Notes under the pieces: generated by a model
Seen by the model: the letters and a program-made list of their open reading frames with translations, nothing else
Database searches by the model: none
What the model was told of the DNA's origin: nothing
Part shown: positions 1-64,000 of the stretch, in pieces
Position numbering within the stretch: position 1 is the stretch's first letter
How the letters are laid out: each line of letters begins with the position of its first letter
Translations under genes and position numbers: made by a program
Source: an uncultured Chryseobacterium sp.
GTDB lineage: Bacteria; Bacteroidota; Bacteroidia; Flavobacteriales_D; Sanyastnellaceae
DNA: 64,000 nt
Direction: 5' to 3'
Assembly: GCA_964430305.1 (NCBI GenBank)
Contig: CAYSEX010000003.1
Span: 3,837-67,836 of the forward strand

Positions 1-1776
1 TTCATACTGATCATCTGCCCAAAGTAAATAATAATCGCCTGGATCAAGCGTCACATCAGGCAGTCTCCACTTGTTTGGATTTGAGATATCATCACTGATG
101 AATTTCGATTTCAAGTTAACGGCTGTAGTTCCCGCATTATATAATTCAATCCAATCTGAATTGCCATCTGCGTCGGATGCATTCAATGTTCCAGCAGGTG
201 CAATTTCATTTATCACGATTGGTGTTGAACTCAGCTGACCAAAAACATAACGAAAGTTGCAATCATGATCATCAATGCTGTTGAGCCATGCATTGGGTAT
301 TACCCCAACAACAATGTTTATGCTATCTGTTGGAAGAGCTATGGAAGAGAAATATTTTTTCTCATTCAGTGGTCCTGGTCCTATTTCTATCGAAGTAGGT
401 AAGGTGTTCCACACATTGGTTAAAATGTTTCTGTAAACTACGGTATGATCTGTAGGCAATGTATTGGCTAGATAAGTTACCAATAGACTGTCATTTTGAA
501 GTTGACCTCTCACGTTGTGTATACTCAAATAAGGCTGAATGTCATCCAATTGAACCACCGCGGTATTCCAGCGCGTATCAACATATTGTGTAATACCATA
601 GTCAACATGATTTCCCCAAGCTTCATCGATGGCATTCAAAAAGTCATCACTCGTGAATCCGAAATCAAGCGGTCGAAATGGGTCTTCAATCGCAGCGGTA
701 GCTATTAAATTTTGAAAATTCAATGCTCGTTGTGATACATGAGAAGGGTTAAAGTAGAGGCTTTGCAATTCGTACAGGTAATTTGTAAATTCATTCCTGT
801 AGCTCGGAACTTGAAGCAAACGTGTAAATAAGGGGCGCGTACTGTTGCCATTCCATGAATATACGGCTCGTGAACCCCAGTCTATTCCAACCCAATCAAT
901 TCCCAAGGTATTGTCTAAATCATATGGGATATATTCCAACAGCCCAGTATTTTCATTTTGATACAAATAGTAGTTGTTTTTATTGAAAATATATCCATCC
1001 CAATTTCCAATGAGAACATCAATGGCCATGATTTTTAGATAGTCGTGAACATTGAAAATACGCTCAATTTCACAAGGCAAATTAGTGAGTGAAGTTTGAT
1101 TCAGCTTGGTTACAAAATTGGCTAAGACAGAAAAGTCTTGCTGATCCTCATTTTCAATTAAATTGTAACTGTCATCGGCATAGGCATCTGGATTAGTTCC
1201 CTGAAAGGCCAGATCACTTCCCCATAAACACTTCCAAAGGTTTTCAGTTCCATCATCGAAATAGGTGTCCGCAAACGTCTCGTCGATCTGCTCTACATTC
1301 ACATACAAGCCGGCATATAAATCGTTGATATATAAACGAACATAGGAAACGCGGGCACCTGGAATTCCCGCTTCCCTGAAAAAATCCCAACACAATTTCG
1401 CTCGAAGTAAACTAGGGTCATTTTGATTCGCAATGAGATTCACTTCTTTCAAACCATAAAAAGACTGGGGTGTGAAAGCATCAAATTTCAACTTGAATGA
1501 TTTCTTTTGAGCCGCTAGAGATGTATTGCCTCTTAATCGAATACCCACTTGGTTATATCCTGAAAATCCCGTTGCAGTAGAATAAACCAAATTACAAGGA
1601 AACTCGTGTGAATTCCCCCAATTGGCAGGATCCTCGAGGGCCGATAAGGTATCCATATCTATACTCACATGAATAGTTGCAACTTCATCTTGCAAAAAGG
1701 CCATTCCCCACTCAGGTAATTGCGCAGAAGTATGAATGGCAAGAATTGAGGTTAACAAAAAAGCTATAATTCTCAT
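1..1776 (-). CDS. CotH-family secreted protein with a C-terminal lamin-tail-like (LTD) segment. It is partial: the 3' end runs off the window.
   Basis: It is absent from the ORF track because no stop codon lies in the window. Manual translation from the ATG at 1776..1774 gives a signal peptide (MRIIAFLLTSILAIHTSAQ), then CotH-like blocks (NLIANQNDPSLLRAKL; DYLKIMAIDVLIGNWDGYIFNKNNYYLY), then an LTD-like stretch (VINEIAPAG..SDWIELYN..LDPGDYYLLWADD). Its start overlaps the upstream stop codon (ATGA). Confidence 0.75.
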   Translation of the reverse strand, partial: MRIIAFLLTSILAIHTSAQLPEWGMAFLQDEVATIHVSIDMDTLSALEDPANWGNSHEFPCNLVYSTATGFSGYNQVGIRLRGNTSLAAQKKSFKLKFDAFTPQSFYGLKEVNLIANQNDPSLLRAKLCWDFFREAGIPGARVSYVRLYINDLYAGLYVNVEQIDETFADTYFDDGTENLWKCLWGSDLAFQGTNPDAYADDSYNLIENEDQQDFSVLANFVTKLNQTSLTNLPCEIERIFNVHDYLKIMAIDVLIGNWDGYIFNKNNYYLYQNENTGLLEYIPYDLDNTLGIDWVGIDWGSRAVYSWNGNSTRPLFTRLLQVPSYRNEFTNYLYELQSLYFNPSHVSQRALNFQNLIATAAIEDPFRPLDFGFTSDDFLNAIDEAWGNHVDYGITQYVDTRWNTAVVQLDDIQPYLSIHNVRGQLQNDSLLVTYLANTLPTDHTVVYRNILTNVWNTLPTSIEIGPGPLNEKKYFSSIALPTDSINIVVGVIPNAWLNSIDDHDCNFRYVFGQLSSTPIVINEIAPAGTLNASDADGNSDWIELYNAGTTAVNLKSKFISDDISNPNKWRLPDVTLDPGDYYLLWADDQYE

Positions 1777-2494: not shown

Positions 2495-2513
2495 GTGTGA
2501 AAAATACACTTTC
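2495..2513. promoter_or_regulatory. Operator-like site C: GTGTGAAAAATACACTTTC
   Basis: It matches GTGTA-N5-TACACTTTC and shares the 9-mer TACACTTTC with sites at 4580, 60442 and 63323. It lies between the Nudix regulator start (2489) and a -7 box (2513..2520). Confidence 0.6.
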
Positions 2514-4579: not shown

Positions 4580-4598
4580 GTGTAAGAAGTACACTTTC
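4580..4598. promoter_or_regulatory. Operator-like site D: GTGTAAGAAGTACACTTTC
   Basis: It has a perfect 5-bp inverted repeat (GTGTA/TACAC) with a 5-nt spacer. It is followed after 2 nt by a near-consensus -7 box (TACTTTGc) and lies 33 nt upstream of the GH65 ATG. Confidence 0.6.
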
Positions 4599-4630
4599 TT
4601 TACTTTGCATTCTTACGAATTGCAAGCGCT

Positions 4631-6844
4631 ATGATAAAATATTTGAAAACAGACCCGTGGAAAATCATTGAAGATTCCTTTCATTCTCATTTGCAAAGAA
4701 GTTCTGAAAGCATCTTCAGCATTGGGAATGGTAAATTTGGTCAACGTGCAAATCACGAAGAAGACTTCTCTGGACCAAGCTTGCAAGGCAGTTACATAGC
4801 GGGTGTTTATTATCCAGACAAAACGCGCGTTGGATGGTGGAAGAATGGCTATCCTGAGTACTTCGCAAAAGTTCTCAATTCAGCAAATTGGATTGGTTTA
4901 AGTATTCATGTAAATGACGAAATGCTTGACTTGAATACATGGAAAGTAGAGTCTTTTGAACGTGTGTTGGATATGAAGCAGGGTTTACTTCAACGCTCGT
5001 TTATTGCTACGTCTCCTTACGGAAAAAGAATTCAAGTAGTTGCTGAAAGATTTTGTAGTATGGCCAATGATGACCTTGCTGCAATTCGATACGAGGTTAA
5101 AGCTTTAGATGAAGATATACTCCTTTCGGTTAACTCTTTCATAGAGGCTGAAGTTCGAAATCATGATAGCAACTATGATGAGCTGTTTTGGAAGAGCATT
5201 CGTTCACAGGCAAATGAAAACGTAGGTTCAGTTCAAGCTGAAACGTTGAAGACTGGTTTTCAAGTTGCATGGGCCATGGAAGTGCATGATAATAAAAATT
5301 CAAATTGGTCAGCAACTCACAATGCACACCGAGTTGAGTCAACTACAAAAACTCAAATCCAAAAGGGTGAGTCTGTAGTATTTCACAAGTACGTGTCCAT
5401 AGTAAGTTCATTGAATGAACAAGCCGAATCTCTTTCGCAAGTAGCTTCCAACAAAGCAAAACAAGCTGCAGTCATAGGTTACCAAGAATTGCGCACAGCT
5501 CACGTTCAAGCATGGGATAAAATTTGGGAACTCGGCGACATTTGCATTGAAGGTGATGACGAGGCACAACAAGGTATTCGTTTTAATATTTTCCATCTCA
5601 ACCAAACCTATACCGGTCAAGATGCACGATTAAATATTGGTCCGAAGGGATTTACCGGAGAAAAATACGGAGGGTCGACTTATTGGGACACTGAGGCGTA
5701 TTGTCTTCCTTTCTATCAAAGCACTAGGCAATCTCACGTGGCTAAGCAACTCTTGGTGTACCGATTTAGGCAATTGGACAAGGCCATTGAAAATGCCCAG
5801 AAATTGGGATTCACTCACGGAGCGGCTTTGTATCCTATGGTAACCATGAATGGAGAAGAGTGTCACAACGAATGGGAAATAACCTTCGAAGAAATTCACA
5901 GAAACGGCGCCATTGCTTATGCCATTTATAATTATGTGAAATACACTGGAGATGAAGCGCACTTGGGTGAATACGGATTTGATGTTTTATTGGGTATTGC
6001 TAGATTTTGGTCACAAAGGGTCAATTGGTCGGAAGCAAAACAAGCTTACGTAATGCTGGGTGTAACTGGACCGAATGAATATGAGAACAATGTAAACAAT
6101 AACTTTTACACCAATTACATAGCGGCTTGGTGCATGAAATACGCCAAGGAAGTAGGGGAGAAGCTTCAGTCAGAAAATGTCACCTTGTTCAATGAAAAGT
6201 GTAAGAAATGGAATTTGGATTTTCAAACAGAGAGTGCTGCATGGCAAGCGCGCATTGACAAGATGTATTACCCCAAGCTTGAGAATAGCCTCATCTTTTT
6301 GCAGCAAGATGGATTCATGGACAAAGAGCAACTGAGCATTGCCGATTTGAAAGCTGAAGAGCGTCCAATCAATCAGCATTGGAGTTGGGATCGTATTTTA
6401 CGCAGCATATTCATAAAGCAAGCAGATGTTTTGCAAGGTTTTTTCTTTTTTGAAGAAGACTTTACCATGGAAGAACTCAAAGCCAATTTCGATTTTTATG
6501 AGCCGAAAACCGTTCACGAATCCAGCTTATCGCCTTGTGTCCATGCCATATTAGCAGCGAAGTTGGGTTATGAAGAAAAGGCCTATGAAATGTATGTAAG
6601 AACCTCTAGATTGGATATTGATGATTACAACCATGAAGCTCATGAGGGATTGCATATTACATCAATGGCCGGCACTTGGATGTCTGTAGTTATGGGCTTT
6701 GGTGGAATGCGCGTGAAAAACGGGGAATTGGTTTTTGAACATGCTTTGTTGCCGAAGAAATGGAAAAGTCTAACTTTTAACGTACTGTTCAGAAATAAAC
6801 AGCTTCGAATTGTATTGAATGAAAGCGGAGTGCAAATAGCTTGA
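4631..6844 (+). CDS. Glycoside hydrolase family 65 phosphorylase (maltose/kojibiose/trehalose phosphorylase type)
   Basis: At 737 aa the length fits GH65. The N-terminus (DPWKIIEDSF...IFSIGNGKFGQRANHEE) and the catalytic-region block (GVTGPNEYENNVNNNFYTNY) are typical of GH65. Confidence 0.85.
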   Translation: MIKYLKTDPWKIIEDSFHSHLQRSSESIFSIGNGKFGQRANHEEDFSGPSLQGSYIAGVYYPDKTRVGWWKNGYPEYFAKVLNSANWIGLSIHVNDEMLDLNTWKVESFERVLDMKQGLLQRSFIATSPYGKRIQVVAERFCSMANDDLAAIRYEVKALDEDILLSVNSFIEAEVRNHDSNYDELFWKSIRSQANENVGSVQAETLKTGFQVAWAMEVHDNKNSNWSATHNAHRVESTTKTQIQKGESVVFHKYVSIVSSLNEQAESLSQVASNKAKQAAVIGYQELRTAHVQAWDKIWELGDICIEGDDEAQQGIRFNIFHLNQTYTGQDARLNIGPKGFTGEKYGGSTYWDTEAYCLPFYQSTRQSHVAKQLLVYRFRQLDKAIENAQKLGFTHGAALYPMVTMNGEECHNEWEITFEEIHRNGAIAYAIYNYVKYTGDEAHLGEYGFDVLLGIARFWSQRVNWSEAKQAYVMLGVTGPNEYENNVNNNFYTNYIAAWCMKYAKEVGEKLQSENVTLFNEKCKKWNLDFQTESAAWQARIDKMYYPKLENSLIFLQQDGFMDKEQLSIADLKAEERPINQHWSWDRILRSIFIKQADVLQGFFFFEEDFTMEELKANFDFYEPKTVHESSLSPCVHAILAAKLGYEEKAYEMYVRTSRLDIDDYNHEAHEGLHITSMAGTWMSVVMGFGGMRVKNGELVFEHALLPKKWKSLTFNVLFRNKQLRIVLNESGVQIA

Positions 6845-8322: not shown

Positions 8323-8396
8323 GGTCCGGTAGTTCAGTTGGTTAGAATACATGCCTGTCACGCATGGGGTCGCGGGTTCGAGTCCCGTCCGGACCG
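8323..8396 (+). tRNA. tRNA-Asp (anticodon GTC)
   Basis: A manual cloverleaf fold works: acceptor GGTCCGG/CCGGACC, anticodon stem CATGC/GCATG with loop CTGTCAC, and a GTTCGAGTC T-arm. Confidence 0.9.
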
Positions 8397-24212: not shown

Positions 24213-24286
24213 TAGCGAGATTGGGGCTTGAACCCAAGACCTTGCGATTATGAATCGCACGCTCTAACCAGCTGAGCTACCTCGCC
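24213..24286 (-). tRNA. tRNA with anticodon CAT (elongator Met, or Ile2 if lysidine-modified)
   Basis: A manual fold works: acceptor GGCGAGG/TCTCGCT (two G-U pairs), anticodon stem TGCGA/TCGCA with loop TTCATAA, and T-arm TTGGG-TTCAAGC-CCCAA. Confidence 0.85.
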
Positions 24287-32726: not shown

Positions 32727-32798
32727 TGGTCCCGTCGCGAATCGAACGCGAATCCTAGGTTCCGGAGACCTATGTAATATCCATTATACTACGGGACC
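32727..32798 (-). tRNA. tRNA-Arg (anticodon CCG)
   Basis: A manual fold works: acceptor GGTCCCG/CGGGACC, anticodon stem TAGGT/ACCTA with loop CTCCGGA, and T-arm TCGCG-TTCGATT-CGCGA. Confidence 0.9.
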
Positions 32799-35268: not shown

Positions 35269-35341
35269 TAGCGGGGACAGGACTCGAACCTGTGGCCTTT
35301 GGGTTATGAGCCCAACGAGCTACCAACTGCTCCACCCCGCA
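35269..35341 (-). tRNA. Initiator tRNA-fMet (anticodon CAT)
   Basis: The sequence tGCGGGGTGGAGCAG...GGGCTCATAACCC... has three G-C pairs closing the anticodon stem and a T:T mismatch at positions 1:72. Both are initiator signatures. Confidence 0.85.
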
Positions 35342-41404: not shown

Positions 41405-42469
41405 ATGAATCTTTTGAAAAAAATCGCGTATCAACTTCTCATACTTTGGGGCGTTGTTACCTTGGTTTTCATTTTGTTTAATGCAACTGGTAGTGATCCT
41501 GTATCACAATTGGTGGGTGAAAGTGCAACGGAAGAGGTGAAGCAAAATGTTAGAGTTAAATTGGGTTATCACAAAACAGCTTGGATTCGATACTGTGAAT
41601 ATTTGAATAATCTGTCTCCAGTTGGTTATTATCAAGAGGTTAATGCACATGGAGCATTTAACAGGGATACTACACTAATTCGTGGAATTGAAATTTTGAA
41701 GTTCACGCATTCAGGAATTTTTCTGAAATGGCCATCTTTCGGCAGATCTTTTATCACAGAACAATCAGTTTTTGAATTGTATTCAGAATCATTTCCCGGA
41801 ACTTTACTTCTTGCAGTTTCTAGTATTGTATTCAGTATTCTTATTGGTATTCCGATGGGTATATGGGCCTACAAGTGGCATGGAACCTGGCTTGATAATT
41901 TAATTTTATTCATAAGTGCAATTGGGGTTTCTGGTCCATCATTTTTTGTTGCCATTCTTGTGGCATGGATTGGAGCTGTATTATTACAACCATACACTGG
42001 TTTGAATATGACAGGAAGTTGGTATGAAGTGGATGTATGGGAGGGACGTTATTTGAATTTTTCAAATATGATTCTTCCCATGATTACCCTGATGATAAGG
42101 CCTTTGAGTGTTATTGTTCAATTGGTAAGAAGTTCAATGCTCGAGGTCATGTCATTGGATTATATTCGAACTGCAAGAGCGAAGGGATTGTCTGAATTCA
42201 ATGTGCTATATAAACATGCTTTGCCCAACGCGCTGAATCCTGTTGTTACGGCTATTTCAGGTTGGTTTGCTAGTCTTTTAGCAGGAGCTGTTTTTGTGGA
42301 GTTCGTTTTTGGTTGGAAGGGAATTGGTCAACTCATGTACTCTGCATTGGAAAAGCAAGATCTTCCCATTATTATGGCAGGTGTTATTTGGGTTGCCATC
42401 ATTTTTATATTAGTCAACGCACTCGTTGAATTGATTTATCGTAAACTAGATCCTCGCATTTCTGACTAG
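41405..42469 (+). CDS. ABC transporter permease (DppB/OppB-type), with no adjacent ATPase or binding protein
   Basis: It has an EAA-like loop (DYIRTARAKGLSEFNVLYKHALPNAL) and six TM segments. The start was set at the internal Met (MNLLKKIAYQ). Confidence 0.8.
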   Translation: MNLLKKIAYQLLILWGVVTLVFILFNATGSDPVSQLVGESATEEVKQNVRVKLGYHKTAWIRYCEYLNNLSPVGYYQEVNAHGAFNRDTTLIRGIEILKFTHSGIFLKWPSFGRSFITEQSVFELYSESFPGTLLLAVSSIVFSILIGIPMGIWAYKWHGTWLDNLILFISAIGVSGPSFFVAILVAWIGAVLLQPYTGLNMTGSWYEVDVWEGRYLNFSNMILPMITLMIRPLSVIVQLVRSSMLEVMSLDYIRTARAKGLSEFNVLYKHALPNALNPVVTAISGWFASLLAGAVFVEFVFGWKGIGQLMYSALEKQDLPIIMAGVIWVAIIFILVNALVELIYRKLDPRISD

Positions 42470-43242
42470 CCTTTTCGAAAAGAATAGGTTGAAATTGATG
42501 AAATGTGTTCGTAATGACTCATTAGTATTGGATGGTTGCAATTAAGCACATGTTGCACCCATTCAGTATATTCCATGAATTCTAAAAATGGTGAAGCTGT
42601 CTCAATGGTATCATGATTACTGAAATAGATAATCTCATTTCTCGGGGGTAATGATGATGGAAATTTTTGATTTTCGATCAATGAATTTCTGAAATGGTGA
42701 TTCAGAATAAAATCAGCAAAGACCAATTTTTCAGGTTGAATGTAATCATCTAAAATGACTTCGAAATTAAAATTTCGTTTTATGAATTCTATTAGTGAAG
42801 TTGGAATGTGAAATGCGGCATCGAGTCGTATGAATTGAACACCGCAATTTTTCAATTGATGAAGGTGATTCATGAGATACGTTTCAACTTCATTGATTGC
42901 ATGATTGAGTTGCCAAACGTCGGTCCAATTGGTATGTATTGGAGAGGCTTGCGTTGAGTATTTGGCCAGAATATGTTTTGGCGAAACGTGATTCAATACC
43001 ACGTCCACACCAATATTTAGATTTAAACCGTTGGCTAATTTGCAAAAGGATTCGAAGTCATTCCAATTTCCGAAATCAGGTTTAATCGTATTGTGCGAAG
43101 TAATGCAATAAGGAGACTCCTGTGATTCAAAGAAGGGAAGTAAGAGTATATGCGTGAAATCAGATGCTTTCAATTGCATTAAGGCTTTTGAGGCCATATG
43201 AAAGGACTTGAATTCAGGAATTGACCATTCAATGATTTTCAT
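42466..43242 (-). CDS. Minimal GH13 (alpha-amylase family)-like protein, 258 aa
   Basis: All four GH13 signature regions can be picked out: DVVLNHVS (I), FIRLDAAFH (II), NFEVILDD (III) and YFSNHDT (IV). Confidence 0.55.
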   Translation of the reverse strand: MKIIEWSIPEFKSFHMASKALMQLKASDFTHILLLPFFESQESPYCITSHNTIKPDFGNWNDFESFCKLANGLNLNIGVDVVLNHVSPKHILAKYSTQASPIHTNWTDVWQLNHAINEVETYLMNHLHQLKNCGVQFIRLDAAFHIPTSLIEFIKRNFNFEVILDDYIQPEKLVFADFILNHHFRNSLIENQKFPSSLPPRNEIIYFSNHDTIETASPFLEFMEYTEWVQHVLNCNHPILMSHYEHISSISTYSFRKG

Positions 43243-54517: not shown

Positions 54518-54541
54518 AGAACGAAGGTAAGGTAAACTCAG

Positions 54542-54568
54542 AAAAAAAGGGCCGAAGCCCTTTTTTTT
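54542..54568 (-). terminator. Rho-independent terminator closing the PUL operon
   Basis: The sequence aaaaaaaGGGCcgaaGCCCtttttttt lies immediately after the stop codon at 54567. Confidence 0.7.
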
Positions 54569-55397
54569 AATCGCAGTTCAAAGGAACATAATAAATATAG
54601 GGTGGAGGATTTGGAGTATACCCTGGCTTCACAATGTAATATGCCAATTTAGTAATGGTAGATCCTGCCGGAACAGGGATGAATTCTTCAGGTATAAATG
54701 TGATTCTGAATTTTCCACCTCCAATGTCTTTCATTTTAAGCGATGGAGTAGAAGTAACATTTGCAGCAATTGCCACATCGAAATAGGTAAAGCTGCCAGT
54801 GAATGCACGAAGGAAAATGTAACATTCGTCGGTACCGAGATTTTGAAGATTGGCATCTGTTTCTTGAAGGTTGTCATAGGTAATACTCAAGAAATCATCT
54901 TGCTTAGCAGCCTCTGGAAACAGACAAATTCTGTCAGCACATAATGCGGGAACAATATCAATATGTAAATCTTCTGTTTTCGCCTCTCCAACACCATCAT
55001 CAGCATATGCATAACCGCTTTTCAATTTTGCCAAGCATGAAATTCCTGTTTGATATAAATTCAAAGGAGTAATTCCTGAATAAAATTGAGTTGGTACAAC
55101 TGTCATTTTATACAAGAGTCCTTGAACTTGAGTTAACAACATACAATCATTCGAATTTCCCCACTCGCCATTGCCGCATGCTGGACCTGCGGGTTGCCAT
55201 GTCCACATATAGACAGAATCTTGCGCATCTGGATGGTTATTCAAGATGGCTTTTAATCCGCCTGTGGTTTGTGCAACATCAATGTAAATATCAACTGTGC
55301 CATTGGCATTTGTTGGCGATGGAAAAACGAAAGCAGCCTGTCCGAAAGAATTCAGAGCGGCAATACTCAATGCTATGAGTGCAAATATATTTTTCAT
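54567..55397 (-). CDS. PUL-encoded secreted protein (in a SusE/F-like position) sharing a module with the N-terminus of the amylase
   Basis: The signal peptide MKNIFALIALSIAALNSFGQ begins at the internal Met. The segment FPSPT..VDIYIDV...GEWG...MTVVPTQFYSG parallels the amylase segment FPTQT..ITIIYDA...GNWG...IVITPQTFYGL. Confidence 0.55.
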   Translation of the reverse strand: MKNIFALIALSIAALNSFGQAAFVFPSPTNANGTVDIYIDVAQTTGGLKAILNNHPDAQDSVYMWTWQPAGPACGNGEWGNSNDCMLLTQVQGLLYKMTVVPTQFYSGITPLNLYQTGISCLAKLKSGYAYADDGVGEAKTEDLHIDIVPALCADRICLFPEAAKQDDFLSITYDNLQETDANLQNLGTDECYIFLRAFTGSFTYFDVAIAANVTSTPSLKMKDIGGGKFRITFIPEEFIPVPAGSTITKLAYYIVKPGYTPNPPPYIYYVPLNCD

Positions 55398-55401
55398 AGA
55401 A

Positions 55402-55899
55402 CTAGATTCGTTTGAAGTTAAACTTGTAAATGACATTTTTAAATTGGTCAGAAGAGCAAACACGATGCATTTCGAAACTCATGTTTTCACTTTGAGGCAA
55501 TACCATACTTCCTAAAAAGAGTTCAATGGTATCGTTGGCATTCATTAAAGTAATAGATGAAGGGGCCACGTAGTCATCCAAAGACCAGGTTCCAGCATTT
55601 CCGAAGAAGTTTCTACCCACGGTATTGGTTACTTGGTAAGTCAATGAATCTACATTGAGTTGAATTTGCATAGGAGTAATTCCTTCAACAACATAGAACT
55701 CACTCAAATCGCGCTGCTCGAGTACGGGATTATTTGGATCTTGTTGTATGAAAGTAGTGAGTTCCCATGTTCCACCCATGCCTTTCACTTTATCAGTGGT
55801 TTCGCCTAATTCGGCACAGGTCTCTGGTTTGCATGAGAAGAAAATTGAACTTGCTAATGCAGCAATGAAAAAATATTTTGTGTATTTCATAACGTTCAT
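55402..55899 (-). CDS. PUL-encoded small lipoprotein (165 aa)
   Basis: It has a lipobox (IFFSC) and sits directly after the SusD-like gene. Confidence 0.55.
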   Translation of the reverse strand: MNVMKYTKYFFIAALASSIFFSCKPETCAELGETTDKVKGMGGTWELTTFIQQDPNNPVLEQRDLSEFYVVEGITPMQIQLNVDSLTYQVTNTVGRNFFGNAGTWSLDDYVAPSSITLMNANDTIELFLGSMVLPQSENMSFEMHRVCSSDQFKNVIYKFNFKRI

Positions 55900-55906
55900 G
55901 TATTAA

Positions 55907-57298
55907 TTATTGACAACCTCCTTCCGGATTTCCTACAAATAGGGCAGAAGTAAATTCACTATTTGGGAATTGAAGAGCCATTCCGTCACAATTCCAAGGT
56001 GCTCCTCTTACAATGATATTCTCACCTTTGGCGCCTCGTCTTTTGAGTTGGTCTACCCATTTTCCTTCTCCCATGGTTTCAATTCTATACTCTCTGCGCG
56101 CTGCATCAATGATTTGAGCCGCTGTTGAACTGGCATCTAAGTCGTTTAAACCAATTCCAAATGCTCTATCGCGAATTGAATTGATGTCGTCAATAGCAGT
56201 TCCAAGATCTTGACCTAATTCGGCAAGTGCTTCAGCACGAATAAGACGTAACTCAGAAGTATAGATAATTGGAATATTGAAAAATATTTTGTCTTTAAAT
56301 CTTAAGTTCCTGTATTTACCTCCATCTGCTTGCATCCAACCCAAGCGATCATCAGCACTATTCAGATTCACGAAGTTGTAGAAATCATTGTTGAACATTA
56401 AGTTCGGAGGAAGTGCTCCGCCAGAATTGTAGTTTCCAACAAAATTATCTGTACGTTGATCAATATGTGCTGCTCCAGGGTTTGAACTTACAATACCAAA
56501 AATAATTTCTGGGTTAACACCTGGGTTATCAGGGAATCGATCGAGTGTGTCAGACATTGGATAATTATCTACCACCTGATTGATGTAATTCACGGCATTT
56601 TGAAAATCATTCATTTGGAAATAAACCATTCCCATTAGCGCAGTAGCAGCATCTTTGTTCGCATAGTTCCCATTGCTTGTGGGCAAATTTTCAATTGCAA
56701 AAGCAAGATCTGATAGAATGAAAGCGTATACTTCTGCGACCGTGTTTCTAGGTAAAGGTTCATTGCTAGCTTCGCTGCGAATGATGATACCCAAGTGATT
56801 ATTGGTAGGTGTAGCGCCATATGGCTGTGCGTACAATTTTACCACACCCCAATGACAGAAAGCACGGATGAATTTGGCCTCAGCCTCCATTCGAGTTCTT
56901 TCTTCTGCTGTTAATCCTTCTATTAAATCGAAATTTTTCAGCAATGAATTGCAACGATAAACGGCGTAATAAAAATCACCGTAAACACCATTGGTAGTAG
57001 GGGTGAAGAAATTGGTTTCGCGATTGTAGATCGCATTGAAATCAAGACCATTGGGTTCGGCTAGATTATCACCCATGAGTTCGTTGATGTTTTGTACTTT
57101 CCCGTCGTACAAATTCGCTAACACGTCATAGCAGCTTACCAATAATTTTTGTGCATCTGCAGGCGTTTTCAGAGCATCTTCGGCTAGAATAGCACCCGAA
57201 GGCGGGTATTCTAAAAACTTTTCACAAGATACAAAAGCTCCTATGATTGTAAGAGATGTAAGTGAGGTAATTAATATCTTTTTCATTTCAGATTTCAT
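55907..57298 (-). CDS. SusD/RagB-family nutrient-binding outer-membrane lipoprotein
   Basis: It has a lipobox (GAFVSC) and a TPR-like helical pattern (ALMGMVYFQMNDFQNAVNY; LIRAEALAELG). Its start overlaps the SusC-like stop codon by 1 nt. Confidence 0.9.
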   Translation of the reverse strand: MKSEMKKILITSLTSLTIIGAFVSCEKFLEYPPSGAILAEDALKTPADAQKLLVSCYDVLANLYDGKVQNINELMGDNLAEPNGLDFNAIYNRETNFFTPTTNGVYGDFYYAVYRCNSLLKNFDLIEGLTAEERTRMEAEAKFIRAFCHWGVVKLYAQPYGATPTNNHLGIIIRSEASNEPLPRNTVAEVYAFILSDLAFAIENLPTSNGNYANKDAATALMGMVYFQMNDFQNAVNYINQVVDNYPMSDTLDRFPDNPGVNPEIIFGIVSSNPGAAHIDQRTDNFVGNYNSGGALPPNLMFNNDFYNFVNLNSADDRLGWMQADGGKYRNLRFKDKIFFNIPIIYTSELRLIRAEALAELGQDLGTAIDDINSIRDRAFGIGLNDLDASSTAAQIIDAARREYRIETMGEGKWVDQLKRRGAKGENIIVRGAPWNCDGMALQFPNSEFTSALFVGNPEGGCQ

Positions 57299-60200
57299 TA
57301 GAAGTTAGCATTTAAACGAATGTTGAAGCTACGCTCTTGCATTGGAGTAAGGTAAGTCACATTTGGACTTAAGTTTCTATCCTGTGCATTTTCAAAATCG
57401 CGAACAACTTCTGGATCTAAACCTGGGAAGTTGGTAATTGTAAATACATTGGTAGCACTAACACCCACAGTGACGTTGGTCATCTTCATAGACTTGGTCC
57501 AACTTGCAGGAAGTGTATAGTCCAATGACAAATTTCTCAAACGTAGATAATCTGCTTTGTAAATGAACATGGAGGTATTCCACCATGGGAACCCATCTGG
57601 CAAACCGTATGAGGTTTCATCTAATGTCAATCGGCCAAAGCTTGTTTCATCACCAAACTCTCTCCAACGATCCAAGATTTCTTCTCTCATGTTCCAACTG
57701 GTTACAACACCAAGCTGACGTTTTGCACTTGAATCGAAAATTTTCGCACCTAAACTGTAAGTAAACAAAGCACTCAAGTTGAAGTTTTTCCATGTGAATG
57801 ATTGAGTTAAACCTCCTATGCATTTTGGTAATCCTGATCCTACATAATTACGAATGCTGTTGTCATAATCATCTGTAAGATTGCCCTGAGGCGTTAGATA
57901 CATGGGTTGACCATTGGTTGGATCAATGTGACTGAATTGAACCATGTAGAATGAACCTATAGGTCTGCCTACAATTACACGAGAGTCATTGGTGCCTCCT
58001 GAAACGGCGTCGGGAGTATAATTTCCAATGCTAACCAATTCATTGTAATTGTATGAAATGTTGAAGTTGGTTTTCATGCCGAACTCTTTTCCTTTGAACC
58101 AATTGATGATGGTAGTGAGCTCAATACCCATGTTCTTAACTTCGGCAACGTTGTCCCAGAAATTTGTGAATCCGGTAGACGCAGGTAAACTTACGTTCAT
58201 CAAAACATCTTTACTGTATTTGCGGTATCCTTCAAGAATGACAGTGAATCTGTCTTCCATGAAACCTGTTTCAAGTGCTACACTGAAGTTAGAAGTAGTC
58301 TCCCATTTCAAATTGGGGTTACCGGCTTGTTGTGGGAAAATAATGGAATCTTGGTTGTAGAAAATACCGTTATTCACAGCTGAATATAACGCATACTGTG
58401 CATTGGCTGGAATATCTGAGTTTCCTGTTAAGCCCCAAGAAGCACGAAGCTTCATGAAATTGATTTTTTTACTGTCTTTTAGGAAATTTTCTTCTGAGAT
58501 AATCCATCCAGCAGAGGCAGAAGGGAAGTTACCGAATTTGTTATTCACTCCGAATCGAGAGCTACCGTCTCTACGGAAGGTGCCTTCAACAAAGTACTTT
58601 CCTTTGTAGTCCCATTTCATTTTAGTAAAGAATCCCATGAAACTAAATTCAGTTGGGTTGTATACGTTGCGTACTACCTGTGTTTCTGGTACATCTGAGA
58701 TGTCTGATAACTCGGTGTAAGCGTCTGTTAAATTTGGGATATAGTTATTGCTGAATTCAGTTTTCGATGTTTGATATTCGAATCCTACTAATGCCGAGAA
58801 ATTCATGTCAGTTGCAATTTCTTTTCCCCATTCTCCGGTAATGTTGGTGCTTTTGTTTCGAACAATTCGTTCATCACGACTATAACTTCCTTGACCGTTC
58901 GATAAGTCAAAGGTGGCAGGAGTTAGTCTGTTTTCGCCAATTTGCATCCAATCGTATCCACCGGTTGCAACGAAAATAACATTCTTTACAGGCATATAAA
59001 TTAAACGAGCAGTGTTGATCATTCGATCTTCAACGGTTGTCCAACGCAACTGTTCGCGGTATGCCACCGGATTTTTTACGTTTCCAAATTCATCTCTCCA
59101 ATAATAGAAGGCACCCGTTGAATCTTGCACAGGGTAGAAGGGAAGGGCGTTCGACATGGCATCACCCAATCCGCCACTCCAGGCCGCATCAACACGTTTG
59201 TTTAGCCCGCGTGTGCCAGATAATGAAAGATTCAAACGAAGTTTATCTCCAAGTTTAAACTCTGGATTAACACGCGCAGCAATTCTCTTGTAGCTATTTC
59301 CAAGTAGGAAACTCTCGTTGTTATCATAGGCCATTGAAAAATAAACACTGGCATTTTTAGCTCCGTATCTTCCACCGAAATTAACTCCGTATTTACTTCC
59401 TCTTCCAATGGTTTGAGACACCCAATCGGTATCTGTTTTCATTGCATTCATGTATGCCGCTTTTCGTGTTGCAGCATCATCTGTTGACGATGTAAAATTA
59501 GGAAGCCAAACATATCCGGTTCCTCCATCATTTTCCCATGCTTCTTGACGAATACGCAAATATTCTTCGGTGTTAAGCATGTTTGGTCTTGAGGCAGGGG
59601 TAGAAATTCCACTGTTAACGCCGTACTCAAACTTCCATCCTTTTTCCTTCGCTCTTTTGGTAGTTATGATAATTACACCGTTGGCTGCTCGTGAACCATA
59701 TTCACCTGCTGCAGCTGCGTCTTTTCTTACTTCAACCTTTTCAATATCACTCGGATTAATAGTGGCCAATGGATTGTTATTCATGGCACCGCTGTTTCCA
59801 CGAAGGAAATAATCTTGCGTCATTGGAATACCATCAATGATATATAAAGGGTCACCACCAGCCGATATGGAACCAATACCTCGAATTCTCACCAAAGACC
59901 CGGAACCTGCAATTCCTGATCCTTGTGAGATTTGAAGACCTGCTGCTTGACCTTGTAAAGCTGCTTCAAAACTCGGAGTACGAATGGCTGTGATGTCCTT
60001 ACCGGAAATTTTGGCAACAGATCCAGTGCCTGGTCTGTTTCGCTCTACGCCATAACCAACAATTTCAATGTTGTCTAAGGTCATGGAGGTTGTGGTTAGT
60101 TGGAAATTCAAATTAACCGTTTCCTTGTCTTTTACCGTGACACTTTGTTTTACCGTTTCGAAATTGAGAGTTTTCACTTCAATGGTAAAGTTTCCTGCGC

Positions 60201-60393
60201 CGGTATTCAACGTATACATTCCCGATCCGTCGGAAGCCGTTCCAATGGCAGTTCCAGGAATCATTAAGATTGCACCAGGTACCGGTTTATTGTCTTGGTC
60301 TAGAACTTTCCCAGTTACTTTTTGGGCATAACTGGTACTTAGACCAACCACAATACCGAACAGTACTAGTCCAAATTTATACAAGTGGTTCAT
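57298..60393 (-). CDS. SusC/RagA-family TonB-linked outer-membrane transporter
   Basis: It has a CarboxypepD_reg-like N-terminus (VTGKVLDQDNKPVPGAILMIPGT), a plug domain (IEKVEVRKDAAAAGEYGSRAANGVIIITTKR), is 1031 aa, and ends in F. Confidence 0.95.
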   Translation of the reverse strand: MNHLYKFGLVLFGIVVGLSTSYAQKVTGKVLDQDNKPVPGAILMIPGTAIGTASDGSGMYTLNTGAGNFTIEVKTLNFETVKQSVTVKDKETVNLNFQLTTTSMTLDNIEIVGYGVERNRPGTGSVAKISGKDITAIRTPSFEAALQGQAAGLQISQGSGIAGSGSLVRIRGIGSISAGGDPLYIIDGIPMTQDYFLRGNSGAMNNNPLATINPSDIEKVEVRKDAAAAGEYGSRAANGVIIITTKRAKEKGWKFEYGVNSGISTPASRPNMLNTEEYLRIRQEAWENDGGTGYVWLPNFTSSTDDAATRKAAYMNAMKTDTDWVSQTIGRGSKYGVNFGGRYGAKNASVYFSMAYDNNESFLLGNSYKRIAARVNPEFKLGDKLRLNLSLSGTRGLNKRVDAAWSGGLGDAMSNALPFYPVQDSTGAFYYWRDEFGNVKNPVAYREQLRWTTVEDRMINTARLIYMPVKNVIFVATGGYDWMQIGENRLTPATFDLSNGQGSYSRDERIVRNKSTNITGEWGKEIATDMNFSALVGFEYQTSKTEFSNNYIPNLTDAYTELSDISDVPETQVVRNVYNPTEFSFMGFFTKMKWDYKGKYFVEGTFRRDGSSRFGVNNKFGNFPSASAGWIISEENFLKDSKKINFMKLRASWGLTGNSDIPANAQYALYSAVNNGIFYNQDSIIFPQQAGNPNLKWETTSNFSVALETGFMEDRFTVILEGYRKYSKDVLMNVSLPASTGFTNFWDNVAEVKNMGIELTTIINWFKGKEFGMKTNFNISYNYNELVSIGNYTPDAVSGGTNDSRVIVGRPIGSFYMVQFSHIDPTNGQPMYLTPQGNLTDDYDNSIRNYVGSGLPKCIGGLTQSFTWKNFNLSALFTYSLGAKIFDSSAKRQLGVVTSWNMREEILDRWREFGDETSFGRLTLDETSYGLPDGFPWWNTSMFIYKADYLRLRNLSLDYTLPASWTKSMKMTNVTVGVSATNVFTITNFPGLDPEVVRDFENAQDRNLSPNVTYLTPMQERSFNIRLNANF

Positions 60394-60441
60394 ATTGATT
60401 GTTTAGGTTAAGTTCGAATGCGAATATATCAATTTTACAGT

Positions 60442-60460
60442 GTGTACAATATACACTTTC
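60442..60460. promoter_or_regulatory. Operator-like site A: GTGTACAATATACACTTTC
   Basis: It lies in the 77-bp gap between the amylase stop and the susC-like start. On the minus strand, after 4 nt, it is followed by a -7-like TAAAATTG. Confidence 0.6.
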
Positions 60461-60470
60461 TCAACAGGTG

Positions 60471-63296
60471 TTAATTCTGAAAATAAAACGGTGCGGTTTG
60501 TTTTTTTCCATTTGAAATGACCGAAACGAAGTATACGCCCGGTTGCAAATGCAAATCAGACAAATTCAGTTTTTTGGTATTCATTCCGGAAAGGGCCGGA
60601 GAGATCTCGTGTTGAATGGTTCTTCCAACGCAATCTAAAATTTGAATTTGAATTTGTCCGGCGTGGCTCATTTCAAACGCAAGGTTCAATTCATTACTTG
60701 TTGGATTGGGCCAAATCATAAATTCCGATTGTGCTATGCTCATGATTTCTTCCATAGACGTGTTCAGATCGGGAAGTGGAAGTTGGTAATCGGTATAAAT
60801 ATGGTATTCACCAGGTTCGAAGTAGAATCCATTGTTTAAGTCAGATACTTCGAAAGCATTTCCCGAAAAGTAATCATACCACGTACCCGTATGCTGGAAT
60901 CCAGGTACCATGGTGAGCGCAGTAGCTTGGAAATTTCCAACTACAACTGCATTTTGAGTGGTTCCATTTAAGTGAATTCGTTTACCAAAACCACCAAGAT
61001 CTATGTTGTAATTGGTTGTACTGAATAATGCTTGGGTCTTTTTCAAGTTATTCAATGCAGCGGTTATTTTGTATAAATGCATTCTGTTTTGATTGGTGAG
61101 ATAGTCCCAACGAACAGGTTTCGCATCAGTTCTGCATCCGGTACTTATGGTTACTCCGTCAGAACATGTATTTATGCTATAATCGTATCCCAATTCTCCG
61201 AATTGCCACAACATTTTTGGACCTGGTATTGGGAGTAATAAACAATGTGCAAGCTCTTGTCTTTTTAGAGCTGTATTTAGATCTTGAATGTTGTATCCAC
61301 CATTTGATGCCCCATACAACAGGTTTTTGTACATAAGCCTTTCTTCGTCATGGCTCTCGGCATACGTTACTAAATGGGGTTGTGACCACCCTCTGTTTTG
61401 GTAGCTTCCCCAAGAGAAGTTAGAGGTGTATCCCATGGAACCTTCTGAGTATTCATGATTCAAATTTCCCCAAAGCATCATGCCGTTGCTAGATAAAGTA
61501 CTTTCTTCATCATTATTTGCAAAGTGCTCAAGAATAAGATAGGCGCCCGGTTCATTGGCTTGAATATGACTGTAATAATCAGTTAGAATATTAATTCTAC
61601 TTTGATCGTACGCTCCCCAAGCACCAATGTTACCTAGGGTGTAGTTTTGTGTAAATCCTTTTGAGAGGTCAAATCTGTATCCATCCACATGAAACTCGTT
61701 CATCCAATAAGCAAGAACACGCTTACAAAAATCTCGGGTGCGTGAACTCTCATGGTTGAAGTCATACCCTACATTGAAATCATGCTTGGGTGTTTGATTG
61801 AACCAAGGGTTCTCGGCTGTAGGCTGACCAGAGTCTCCTGCATTTGGATCGAAATACATACGAACCATAGGGTTCTGGCCAAAACTATGATTCAGAGCAA
61901 TATCTAGAATGACTGCGATTCCTCTGTTGTGAGCTTCATTGATGAATGTTTTCAATGCTTCAGCGGTACCATATGCCTTATCTGGAGCGAAATAAAATGA
62001 AGGGTTATAACCCCAACTGTTGTTTCCTTCAAATTCATTGATTGGCATCAGTTGAATGGCTGTAACACCAAGGTTTTCAAGATAATCAAGAGAATCTTTG
62101 AGTGACTGATAAGAACGATCTTCTAAGAAATCACGAACCAACAATTCATAGACCACCAACTTACTTTTGGCAGGACGAACAAAGGCTTGATCGGTCCAGT
62201 TGAAAGAAGGAGGGTTGATTGTGAAAACCGAAACAGGTTCAGATGTTAATCCTACAGGGTAATCAATGAGATTCGGATAGGTAGTTTCGCTGATCCATGG
62301 ATCATTCCAATAATCTAAAATTTTGTCCGCGTAAACATCTGCTACACGCATTCCTTCCGCATCAATGTGATATTGAAAACGATATTCTACTCCAGACTGA
62401 AGATTCGGAATGTCTAACCAATAGGTTGAACCATCTGGAGTTCTATTCATGAGGTAGTTCAAATTGAGTTCCCAATTATTAAAGTCTCCAACTACGAAAA
62501 CATAATCTTTATTTGGGGCGTAGAGTTGAAGTCGAACCGAATTGCCCGATGTATAATTAATTCCATCTACAGTTCCTGAAGGTGACGCCGCAACAGGAAT
62601 TGAGGGCATTATGATCAAAGTCTTTTCGTCTGTAATTATTTCACTTCCATTGTCGGCCGAAAGCGAGAGAACATAGCTTCCAGATGAAGATTGATTAAAC
62701 GTATAATTCAAAGATGTAACACCATTTCCATTAGCAACCACATTGCCATTCATTGAGATGGTCATGTTGCAGGCTTGAGATGCATTGGCTACAACGGCAA
62801 CATTCTGACCCGCGTTCACAATCTGTGAATTGTTAATGGGTTGCGATAAAGAAGCATTGAAACCTGCAGGATAAATGTCAAGGTAAATATCGCTTCCATC
62901 TGCATTTCTTCCTACTGTAGTTCCTTGTTGATTCCGGAACACAAACATGAGTTTGGAAACCGTTTCACCTACATTCAATCCGTAAAACGTTTGAGGTGTT
63001 ATCACAATTTGATGCAAGTTGTTTCCAAGTGGGGTCATAACAACGTTGGGATCTGCTGTTCCCCAGTTTCCTATGACATGCTGCCAATCATTGGCATTTG
63101 CACTGTTGCTAGAAATTACTCCAGTATGTGCGTAAATGGGAATGAATCCGGTTAAATCGCCATTTCCTGAAGTGGCATCGTAGATAATGGTAATTTGATC
63201 TGTTTGAGTGGGAAATGCCGGTGTTGACGATAATATTTGAGCCGACAAATTCAAACTAAATAAAGCGAATAAAATGGTGTAAAGCTTTTTTCTCAT
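60471..63296 (-). CDS. Multidomain GH13 alpha-amylase-family enzyme: N-terminal binding-like modules, a CBM48-like domain, the GH13 core, and a T9SS C-terminal domain
   Basis: GH13 signature regions are DIALNHS, GYRFDLSKG, LILEHF and YAESHDE. The CBM48-like block is VRLQLYAPNKDYVFVVGDFNNWE. The tail is MIWPNPTSNELNLAF... The start was set at MRKKLYTILF because a -7 box lies inside the longer ORF. Confidence 0.9.
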   Translation of the reverse strand: MRKKLYTILFALFSLNLSAQILSSTPAFPTQTDQITIIYDATSGNGDLTGFIPIYAHTGVISSNSANANDWQHVIGNWGTADPNVVMTPLGNNLHQIVITPQTFYGLNVGETVSKLMFVFRNQQGTTVGRNADGSDIYLDIYPAGFNASLSQPINNSQIVNAGQNVAVVANASQACNMTISMNGNVVANGNGVTSLNYTFNQSSSGSYVLSLSADNGSEIITDEKTLIIMPSIPVAASPSGTVDGINYTSGNSVRLQLYAPNKDYVFVVGDFNNWELNLNYLMNRTPDGSTYWLDIPNLQSGVEYRFQYHIDAEGMRVADVYADKILDYWNDPWISETTYPNLIDYPVGLTSEPVSVFTINPPSFNWTDQAFVRPAKSKLVVYELLVRDFLEDRSYQSLKDSLDYLENLGVTAIQLMPINEFEGNNSWGYNPSFYFAPDKAYGTAEALKTFINEAHNRGIAVILDIALNHSFGQNPMVRMYFDPNAGDSGQPTAENPWFNQTPKHDFNVGYDFNHESSRTRDFCKRVLAYWMNEFHVDGYRFDLSKGFTQNYTLGNIGAWGAYDQSRINILTDYYSHIQANEPGAYLILEHFANNDEESTLSSNGMMLWGNLNHEYSEGSMGYTSNFSWGSYQNRGWSQPHLVTYAESHDEERLMYKNLLYGASNGGYNIQDLNTALKRQELAHCLLLPIPGPKMLWQFGELGYDYSINTCSDGVTISTGCRTDAKPVRWDYLTNQNRMHLYKITAALNNLKKTQALFSTTNYNIDLGGFGKRIHLNGTTQNAVVVGNFQATALTMVPGFQHTGTWYDYFSGNAFEVSDLNNGFYFEPGEYHIYTDYQLPLPDLNTSMEEIMSIAQSEFMIWPNPTSNELNLAFEMSHAGQIQIQILDCVGRTIQHEISPALSGMNTKKLNLSDLHLQPGVYFVSVISNGKKQTAPFYFQN

Positions 63297-63313
63297 ATGC
63301 ATTGTATGTGCAT

Positions 63314-63321
63314 CAAATATA
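63314..63321 (-). promoter_or_regulatory. -7 box (TAtaTTTG) for the amylase/PUL
   Basis: The reverse complement reads TATATTTG, 1 nt downstream of site B. The implied leader is very short. Confidence 0.4.
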
Positions 63322-63322
63322 G

Positions 63323-63341
63323 GAAAGTGTATTTTGTACAC
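63323..63341. promoter_or_regulatory. Operator-like site B: GTGTACAAAATACACTTTC on the minus strand
   Basis: It matches site A at 18 of 19 positions. The minus strand reads GTGTACAAAATACACTTTC-C-TATATTTG. Confidence 0.6.
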
Positions 63342-63402
63342 CAACTAATTACCTCGATTTTTAAAATTTCATTCGTTACTTTGGAAAATCAATTGAAAAG
63401 AC

Positions 63403-64000
63403 ATGCAATTACTTGACGGATTATCCCTTTCGAAGACCATTAAATTGGAATTGAAGGAACAAGTTGAAAAACGAAAATCAGAAAATAAAAAAACGCCACA
63501 CTTAGCGGCTGTTCTTGTTGGCAATAATGGTGCAAGTCAAACGTATGTTAATGCGAAGGTAAAGGCGTGCAATGAGGTTGGATTTGATTCAACTTTGATT
63601 CATTTGCCTGAAGATATTTCTGAGCATGACTTGTTATTTGAGATTGAAAAACTGAATTTGAATCCAGATATTGACGGGTACATTGTTCAACTGCCTCTTC
63701 CGCAACACATCAACGAGAAAAAAATATTGTTGGCTATTGATCCCATGAAAGACGTAGATGGTTTTCATCCCGAAAATGTGGGAAGAATGATGCTCAACAT
63801 GAAAACGTTTCTTCCTGCTACACCCATGGGAATAATTACGTTACTGGAACGAAACAAAATTGAAACTTCAGGAAAACACGCTGTTGTATTGGGAAGGTCA
63901 CACATTGTAGGACTTCCAATATCTATTTTACTTCAACGAAATCATCCTTTTGGCAATTGCACCGTTACATTGTGTCATTCTAAAACGCAGAACATAGAGG
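63403..64000 (+). CDS. folD: Bifunctional methylenetetrahydrofolate dehydrogenase/cyclohydrolase, partial (the 3' end runs off the window)
   Basis: Manual translation gives MQLLDGLSLSKTIK...PHLAAVLVGNNGASQTYVNAKVKAC...DGYIVQLPLP.HI...DVDGFHPENVG...LPATPMGI..LL. It is not in the ORF track because no stop codon lies in the window. Confidence 0.9.
   Translation, partial: MQLLDGLSLSKTIKLELKEQVEKRKSENKKTPHLAAVLVGNNGASQTYVNAKVKACNEVGFDSTLIHLPEDISEHDLLFEIEKLNLNPDIDGYIVQLPLPQHINEKKILLAIDPMKDVDGFHPENVGRMMLNMKTFLPATPMGIITLLERNKIETSGKHAVVLGRSHIVGLPISILLQRNHPFGNCTVTLCHSKTQNIE

Follow-up and report, generated by a model that had tools for sequence, protein, structure and literature searches.

Putative operators of an AraR-like NrtR-family regulator at a starch utilization locus and a maltose phosphorylase gene of an uncultured freshwater Flavobacteriales bacterium

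Introduction

Regulation of polysaccharide utilization loci (PULs) is usually ascribed to systems encoded within the locus itself, namely SusR-like proteins, hybrid two-component systems or extracytoplasmic function (ECF) sigma/anti-sigma pairs. The starch PUL of Bacteroides encodes SusR, a membrane-spanning activator that senses maltose. Glycolytic genes, in turn, are repressed by CggR (in Bacillus), Cra/FruR and HexR, members of the SorC/DeoR, LacI and RpiR families, respectively, whose effectors are phosphorylated intermediates. Published accounts of the NrtR family concern NAD metabolism and, within Bacteroidota, arabinose and xylose (PMC2330246, PMC3878776, PMC4666351). BtAraR (BT0354) is an L-arabinose-responsive NrtR-family repressor of Bacteroides thetaiotaomicron (PMC4666351), and BtXylR (BT0791), together with predicted arabinose and xylose NrtR-like regulators of Flavobacteriia, has been described for pentose regulons only (PMC2330246). 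Here we analyse a 64-kb stretch of contig CAYSEX010000003.1, from the genome of an uncultured freshwater Flavobacteriales bacterium (the window). A short palindrome recurs in it before two genes of a starch-type PUL, before a maltose phosphorylase gene of glycoside hydrolase family 65 (GH65), and before the gene of an NrtR-family protein that is probably its reader.

The operators of BtAraR established by gel shift and crystallography are AGTGTATTTGATACACC, AGTGTTACTTTTACACC and AGTGTAAAAAAGACACT (in full AAGAGTGTATTTGATACACCAAA, AAAAGTGTTACTTTTACACCCAA and AAAGTGTAAAAAAGACACTTATA); the protein covers about 25 bp of DNA, and in the crystal K179, N181, K184 and the intercalating R180 read GTGT, with further contacts made by S163, D178 and R183 (PMC4666351). 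No description of an NrtR-family regulator of a starch-type PUL, of maltose phosphorylase or of glycolysis genes was found in the literature searched, an incomplete set with RegPrecise outside its scope.

Results

A palindrome recurs in front of four genes

The amylase gene of the PUL is flanked by two closely similar 19-nt segments, site A (60442-60460, plus strand, GTGTACAATATACACTTTC; core 60442-60456) and site B (63341-63323, minus strand, GTGTACAAAATACACTTTC), the latter with a palindromic core, GTGTA-N5-TACAC, at 63327-63341. Reading of the sequence bears out the original prediction that the two agree at 18 of 19 positions, and the gene coordinates place site B before the amylase gene and site A before the gene for a SusC-like protein, as had been proposed. 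The opposite orientation also claimed for the pair is true of the TTTC flank only; the 15-nt core is palindromic, so that its orientation is otherwise undefined. A search for the 19-mer with up to three mismatches returned four copies in the window against 0.08 expected, a number reached in none of 100 shuffles, and the motif is therefore not a product of chance. Thus, the two copies noticed earlier are real, but two further copies and the gene for the likely cognate regulator had been overlooked in the same window. All four copies are intergenic, lying before the amylase, susC, GH65 and regulator genes (Table 1). From the sites adjacent to the regulator gene in related genomes, the consensus can be extended to a palindrome of some 21 bp, CTTAGTGTA-N5-TACACTAAG, which can also be written (C)TTAGTGTA-N5-TACACTAA(G) and which takes the form TTGGTGTA-N5-TACACTTTC in the lineage of the window.

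The window encodes an AraR-like protein of the NrtR family

The gene for the regulator lies about 58 kb from the PUL. Its product has a C-terminal winged helix of the NrtR type (PF21906, 89.1 bits for a cut-off of 27; PF19368, AraR_C, 32.3 bits for a cut-off of 23.8) and an N-terminal domain of the Nudix fold (PF00293, 25.3 bits for a cut-off of 21.1). The Nudix box is degenerate, D56-x5-E62-x7-R70-ILKEL as against GX5EX7REUXEEXGU; as in AraR, substitutions have removed the first glycine and, within REUXEE, two of the three catalytic glutamates. The closest solved structure is that of BtAraR (5bs6, E 7.6e-38; 41% identity over 181 aligned residues), and SoNrtR (3gz5) is matched with an E value of 8.8e-13. 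We assign the protein to the AraR/XylR-like, sugar-sensing branch of the NrtR family.

When aligned to AraR, the regulator has an identical recognition helix, DKRNFRK, and an equivalent of the contact serine, and 12 orthologues (69-88% identity) show no variation at the DNA-contacting residues. The BtAraR operators and the sites of the window have the same GTGT/ACAC half-sites 7 nt apart, in the arrangement GTGT(A)-N5-(T)ACAC; on the plus strand site B reads GAAAGTGTATTTTGTACACCAAC, nearly identical to the first of the AraR operators given above. Judged from sequence, both the geometry of the sites and the contact residues of the protein would thus be those of an AraR-type pair. In the ligand pocket, and on the basis of the pairwise alignment only, R86 and H131 of AraR are kept as R94 and H155, R34 is replaced by Q39, and G48/F49 by D56/L57. 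An AlphaFold2 model of the regulator, built from a 12-sequence alignment, had a mean predicted local distance difference test score (pLDDT) of 39.7, and no structural inference was drawn from it.

The sites occupy predicted core promoter positions

In Flavobacterium, the -7 box of sigma-A promoters, TAnnTTTG, spans positions -12 to -5 (PMC9723704). Relative to this consensus, the boxes at the amylase and regulator genes are perfect, and the candidates at susC and GH65 have one mismatch each. From the position of the box TATATTTG, transcription of the amylase gene is predicted to start at about 63309; the operator would then fill approximately -14 to -32, its core -18 to -32, and a TTG would stand at -33 to -35. 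The interval filled by the operator thus differs little from that of -12 to -30 which had been put forward for site B as a repressor position. The layout recurs at GH65, where a single nucleotide separates the fourth copy of the motif from the -7-like box TTACTTTG downstream of it (4600-4607). On the minus strand, the -7 box of the regulator gene is immediately followed by the third copy, which would overlie the predicted transcription start and which lies 5 nt upstream of the ATG at 2489. Autoregulation would result from such a placement.

The situation at susC is less clear. Between the stop of the amylase gene (60471) and the ATG of susC (60393) is a gap of 77 nt; site A lies within it and, exactly as described before, is followed in the direction of susC by 4 nt (ACTG) and by TAAAATTG (60430-60437). 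Use of TAAAATTG as the -7 element of susC is, however, doubtful, because it has one mismatch and begins 4 nt after the core, whereas in relatives a susC box of the form TAnnTT[T/C]G is found 8-18 nt past the operator core. Because of this spacing in relatives, we favour TATATTCG, 13 nt past the core, as the candidate. A promoter proximal to susC is thus plausible but weak, as judged from these elements. A scan of the window with a sigma-70 model gave 22 sites for 27.7 expected, with a model that does not cover Bacteroidota promoters.

Sequences of the PUL are found in several freshwater metatranscriptomes. Contigs of run X17 cover it from 54519 to 63258, and the gap between the amylase gene and susC is crossed in three runs (X17, 60137-60978; X25, 60349-60759; X26, 60392-60542), which suggests that the two genes are at least partly co-transcribed. 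RNA contigs over 63259-63576 were not found, though DNA runs cover that stretch; the end of the RNA contigs at 63258 fits a transcription start just downstream of the amylase -7 box. With regard to the separate but co-regulated promoters envisaged for the amylase gene and for the set headed by susC, co-regulation is well supported by the second, conserved site in the gap, but strict separation is not, since RNA contigs cross it.

The palindrome accompanies the regulator gene and the PUL in related genomes

A total of 160 related loci were compared, 80 from a scan for the regulator (one genome per species, orthologues of 67-98% identity) and 80 from a metagenome scan for the amylase. The regulator loci all come from metagenome-assembled genomes (MAGs) of uncultured Flavobacteriales, Crocinitomicaceae or Bacteroidota, mostly from fresh water; altogether, at least 132 species-level genomes of abundant, mostly uncultured freshwater and marine Flavobacteriales have an orthologue. 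GTGTA-N5-TACAC, with no more than one mismatch, adjoins the regulator gene in about 76 of the 80 genomes. In most relatives the regulator gene is divergent from an operon comprising pfkA, gapA, the gene for a BadF-type sugar kinase, pgmB and GH65, with methylglyoxal synthase (mgsA) and an old yellow enzyme (OYE)-like flavoenzyme as variable members; its beta-phosphoglucomutase belongs to TIGR01990, above cut-off. At the promoters of these operons the operator core abuts the -7 box, as in TACAC-TAAGTT[T/C]G, TACAC-TAAGTTTG or TACAC-TTACATTTG. In the clade of the window (L001-L022) the regulator gene faces the gene for the OYE-like protein, and GH65 has a site of its own, as in the window; this operator before GH65 is conserved in L001-L019 and in L056.

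Comparison of the related intergenic regions on the PUL side shows the motif to be conserved before orthologous amylase genes and in most of the gaps between them and susC. The regulator gene stands directly beside the same amylase-SusC-SusD PUL in L073, L076, L078, L086 and L087, with sites at the same two places; in L073, L076 and L078 the order is (CotH-like), amylase, SusC, SusD, DUF5004, DUF4961. In all ten close PULs (window, L081-L086, L073, L076 and L078), whose amylases are 51-97% identical, GTGT(A/T)-N5-(A/T)ACAC precedes the amylase gene, a perfect TATATTTG follows 5-7 nt past the operator core, and the ATG 24-39 nt past it. A multiple alignment has the operator and TATATTTG as the sole conserved block upstream of the amylase genes. 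In a strain of 96% identity (L081/L082), the flanks and one base of the spacer differ, and half-sites and -7 box are unchanged.

A site scoring at least 10 bits is present in the gap between the amylase gene and susC in 12 of 23 loci, and most of the others have GTGT-N7-ACAC with other flanks there; the palindrome is missing from the gap in L078, L092, L093 and L142. Among the 80 metagenomic amylase loci, 30 have GTGT-N7-ACAC no more than 160 nt before or 200 nt after the amylase gene, for 0.033 expected per locus. Presence of the palindrome tracks the regulator gene or susC synteny (Fisher p 7.6e-7, 80 amylase loci), and among the more distant loci without that synteny 45 of 56 have no palindrome.

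Genes of the PUL and of the regulator locus

The genes of the PUL are all on the minus strand, in the order amylase, SusC-like, SusD-like, DUF5004, DUF4961, terminator (Table 1); DUF5004 is followed by DUF4961 in L073 also. The best solved structure for the amylase is that of the alpha-amylase 8xx9 (E 7e-172), and translation starts at the ATG at 63296 or 63302, not at the TTG at 63344 of the open reading frame listing. The C-terminal sorting domain of the type IX secretion system (T9SS) would make this amylase a secreted or attached product of that system, unlike a SusG-like lipoprotein. A DUF4961 module is common to its N-terminus and to the product of the last gene of the PUL. The DUF5004 and DUF4961 proteins are possibly SusE/F-like in role. 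The set ends, as previously proposed, at the terminator, which went undetected in a simple terminator scan. This element consists of an A-tract, a GGGC-TTCG-GCCC hairpin and a T-tract; it is alike on both strands and could act both ways.

Table 1. Features of the window discussed in the text (PWM, position weight matrix; positions are those of the window)
Feature	Position	Strand	Remarks
CotH-like secreted protein, cut by the window edge	1-1776	-	Pfam CotH, Lamin Tail Domain
NrtR-family regulator, 238 residues	1773-2489	-	Pfam NrtR_WHD (2e-25), AraR_C, NUDIX
Motif, third copy	2495-2513	+	GTGTGAAAAATACACTTTC; PWM 22.2 bits
Regulator -7 box	2520-2513	-	TACTTTTG; perfect; third copy directly follows
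OYE/FadH-like flavoenzyme, 663 residues	2574-4565	+	Pfam, NCBIfam; divergent from regulator
Motif, fourth copy	4580-4598	+	GTGTAAGAAGTACACTTTC; PWM 24.6 bits
GH65 maltose phosphorylase	4631-6844	+	Pfam GH65 N-terminal, middle and C-terminal domains
Intrinsic terminator of the PUL unit	54542-54568	-	fold -15.3 kcal/mol, z -2.97
DUF4961 surface protein	54567-55397	-	Pfam
DUF5004 surface protein	55402-55899	-	Pfam
SusD-like glycan-binding lipoprotein	55907-57298	-	Pfam SusD-like_3, SusD_RagB
SusC-like TonB-dependent transporter	57298-60393	-	Pfam Plug, CarboxypepD_reg
Candidate susC -7 box	60421-60428	-	TATATTCG; one mismatch; 13 nt past operator core; inferred from spacing in relatives
Secreted GH13 alpha-amylase	60471-63296	-	Pfam DUF4961-like N-terminus, CBM48, GH13 catalytic domain, T9SS C-terminal sorting domain
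Amylase -7 box	63314-63321	-	TATATTTG; perfect TAnnTTTG; 1 nt (C) after site B

No SusR-like, hybrid two-component or ECF regulator gene was found adjoining the PUL in the window, where it is flanked by folD and by genes for a SIMPL protein, a family 2 glycosyltransferase (GT2) and an LVIVD/T9SS protein. The gene divergent from the amylase gene (63405-64000, plus strand) is folD-like by its translation. Site B lies about 35 nt upstream of the sole -7-like box before it (TTACTTTG, approximately 63375-63382), and an effect of the site on this gene is unlikely. Elsewhere in the window, an open reading frame of 258 residues (42466-43242, minus strand) matches only the first 80 or so positions of the GH13 alpha-amylase catalytic domain. 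This frame, which no operator precedes, may represent an amylase gene that is truncated or a remnant.

At the other end of the window, GH65 matches the PRK13807 model of NCBIfam with 1080 bits, above cut-off, and its best structure is the maltose phosphorylase 1h54 (E 9e-219). Inside the GH65 coding sequence (6130-6144) the motif is weakly matched a fifth time, by GTGCATGAAATACGC (8.7 bits); at the same position, strains L001 and L002, which are 98% identical, have a core with one mismatch, GTGCATGAAATACAC on the plus strand of the window. This fifth match may be due to chance or may be a decaying site. The OYE/FadH-like protein is of the 2,4-dienoyl-CoA reductase, BaiCD or bilirubin-reductase type; its gene closes the pfkA...pgmB operon, immediately ahead of GH65, in L050, L056, L057, L059, L070 and L071, and it is a possible member of the regulon. 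Methylglyoxal synthase is encoded within the operon headed by the putative operator in many relatives, for example at L053:3762-4154, with equivalent genes of about 130 residues in L043-L080.

The TGA of the regulator gene overlaps the ATG of the CotH-like gene (ATGA, 1776-1773), which is therefore probably co-transcribed with it. A CotH-like gene follows the regulator gene in 50 of the 80 loci and lies between the regulator and amylase genes in L076 (10690-12924), L078 (10714-12966) and L086, an arrangement that suggests some part in the alpha-glucan system. Rfam families matched the window at four tRNA genes (8323-8396, 24213-24286, 32727-32798 and 35269-35341) and nowhere else.

Discussion

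The four sites are most likely operators of the regulator encoded at 1773-2489 which, from its sequence and that of its relatives, we take to be an effector-released repressor of an alpha-glucan, maltose and glycolysis regulon. The sites themselves, their conservation, their co-occurrence with the regulator gene, their constant position within promoters and the identity of the DNA-reading residues with those of AraR are observations made here. From them we infer that the regulator binds to the sites, that it represses rather than activates, and what kind of effector it senses. A dimer of the regulator would read the two GTGT half-sites of the palindrome. At the amylase promoter, the operator would fill the spacer between the TTG at -33 and TATATTTG, such that the bound protein would exclude RNA polymerase and cause repression; were its coverage similar to the 25 bp or so of AraR, both promoter elements would be occluded. 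The operator in the gap may tighten the control of susC-susD-DUF5004-DUF4961, both at a weak promoter before susC and by impeding read-through. Further targets of the same protein would be GH65, the protein's own operon (the regulator and CotH-like genes) and, in most relatives, the pfkA-gapA-sugar kinase-(mgsA)-pgmB-GH65 operon. By analogy with arabinose in the case of AraR, a product of alpha-glucan breakdown may bind to the Nudix-like pocket and release the protein from DNA. The T9SS amylase and the SusC/D pair would serve to import maltooligosaccharides, GH65 would split maltose into glucose and beta-glucose-1-phosphate and, in relatives, beta-phosphoglucomutase, the kinase, PfkA and GapA would feed the products into glycolysis.

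Several points weigh against this reading. The PWM scores of the sites (25.2 bits for site B and 18.2 bits for site A) come from a matrix whose core is set by the search pattern, so that independent evidence is limited to the flanks and the genomic positions. No perfect -7 box follows site A, and the related PUL of L078 has no site in its gap. The RNA evidence consists of assembled contigs, with neither strand nor read ends, and is weak; moreover, a contig of run X17 (2032-2614) bridges the divergent region between the regulator and OYE-like genes, operator included. Overlapping divergent transcripts, a longer leader or carry-over of DNA into the RNA library could each produce such a contig, and because of it the RNA contigs cannot settle the promoters. 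Of the three residues with which AraR contacts arabinose, one differs in the regulator (Q for R34), and R94 is followed by a conserved insertion of 15 residues (V95-V109), rich in arginine and lysine and of the form RVxGLKDQEWLRxFR. Finally, other AraR/XylR paralogues with the same recognition helix, encoded elsewhere in the genome, could share the sites.

Some of the same evidence could be taken to mean that the NrtR-family protein acts at the motif as an activator or a dual regulator. Site A lies upstream of a weak -7-like box of susC, where an activator could help, and SusR, the classical regulator of Bacteroides starch PULs, is an activator. In the amylase, GH65 and pfkA promoters, however, the operator is inside the core promoter, between -33 and the -7 box or abutting the latter, and at the regulator's own promoter it covers the predicted start; the characterised members of the family, AraR and NrtR, are repressors released by ligand. 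We consider activation unlikely for these reasons.

It is still less likely that a different DNA-binding protein, Crp/Fnr-like for example, reads the palindrome and that its link with the NrtR-family protein is a coincidence. Short GTGT/ACAC palindromes do resemble the half-sites of other regulator families. Nevertheless, the site adjoins the regulator gene in some 76 of 80 genomes, the regulator keeps those residues of AraR whose structure defines the contacts to GTGT, and amylase loci with neither the regulator gene nor susC synteny are mostly devoid of the site.

Alternatively, the palindromes might function at the RNA level and form a hairpin with a part in termination, attenuation or transcript processing between the amylase gene and susC; site A would be transcribed under read-through, and a stem of 6 bp is possible. 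Yet the fold of the gap is no better than that of shuffled sequences (z -0.07), the fold at site B is also at background, and the gap has neither a T-run nor a terminator-like site. Site B and the copies at 2495 and 4580 lie upstream of predicted transcription starts, close strains vary in the bases of the spacer and not in the half-sites, with no compensatory changes, and the motif matches no Rfam family. An RNA-level element is thus rejected as highly improbable. Hardly any weight is left for the idea that the copies are inverted repeats at the borders of an invertible segment or of a mobile element with the amylase gene as cargo, as two 19-nt copies in opposite orientation, 2.9 kb apart around one gene, might suggest: the core is palindromic, so that orientation means little, two more copies occur elsewhere in the window, the arrangement is kept in genomes whose amylases are just 51-66% identical, no joints or inverted forms were seen in four DNA metagenomes or in the amylase loci, and no recombinase gene was found near the PUL in the window.

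As putative operators of an NrtR-family repressor, the four sites are best compared with those of BtAraR, with which the system has in common the two-domain architecture of the protein, the DKRNFRK helix, the GTGT(A)-N5-(T)ACAC sites and the control from a distance of both cytoplasmic catabolic genes and SusC/D PULs, already known for AraR and proposed here. It differs in that the putative regulon comprises an alpha-glucan PUL, maltose phosphorylase and, in relatives, glycolysis instead of arabinose utilization, with no ara genes nearby, in that the pocket is altered and holds the 15-residue insertion, and in its host, an uncultured freshwater member of the Flavobacteriales. We tried the assignment of the protein as the AraR (BT0354) orthologue and rejected it, the R34 contact being lost and clustering with araMPRDAB or arabinan genes being absent. 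No ara or xyl genes, nor a pfkA/gapA operon, were found in the window, and no ara genes in the annotated loci. BtXylR and the predicted regulators of Flavobacteriia belong to the same sugar-sensing branch and are encoded divergently from, or in an operon with, their targets, a likeness drawn from their description, not from sequence.

SoNrtR and the ADP-ribose-responsive NrtR proteins have the same fold, but their operators differ and the NAD regulon is not shared here. Identity with NrtR proper was also rejected, since the NF050029 equivalog model gives 95.4 bits for a cut-off of 400, the neighbouring genes concern glycolysis and alpha-glucans, and the putative regulon holds no NAD genes. The regulator thus has the domains that define the family and is neither AraR nor NrtR, which would place it in a separate, new orthologous group; its regulon would be new as well and so, probably, would its effector.

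The likeness to SusR lies in the proposed control of an amylase and SusC/D starch PUL by a product of starch breakdown; the difference is that no SusR-like gene stands by the PUL, the candidate being a soluble, repressor-type protein encoded 58 kb away. With CggR, Cra/FruR and HexR, the regulator would have in common that glycolytic capacity (pfkA and gapA, in relatives) is matched to sugar supply, although the protein families are unrelated. Tentatively, one may go further and see in this widespread regulator of freshwater and marine Flavobacteriales a master switch that couples alpha-glucan foraging, maltose phosphorolysis and glycolysis in response to a glucose-derived, possibly phosphorylated effector in place of a free pentose, with a pocket remodelled by the basic 15-residue insertion; we hold this to be possible but less probable than not. 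If true, such a switch would do in Bacteroidota what CggR or Cra does elsewhere, with a Nudix fold as its scaffold.

The locus points to a soluble, Nudix-type repressor that acts at a distance and ties a starch/glycogen PUL to the cytoplasmic catabolism of maltose; in many relatives the tie appears to reach the first committed steps of glycolysis. Because orthologues of the regulator occur in at least 132 species-level genomes, the operator could be used to predict alpha-glucan regulons straight from metagenomes. The range of ligands and regulons of the NrtR family, so far NAD, arabinose and xylose, would thereby be extended to hexose and alpha-glucan metabolism.

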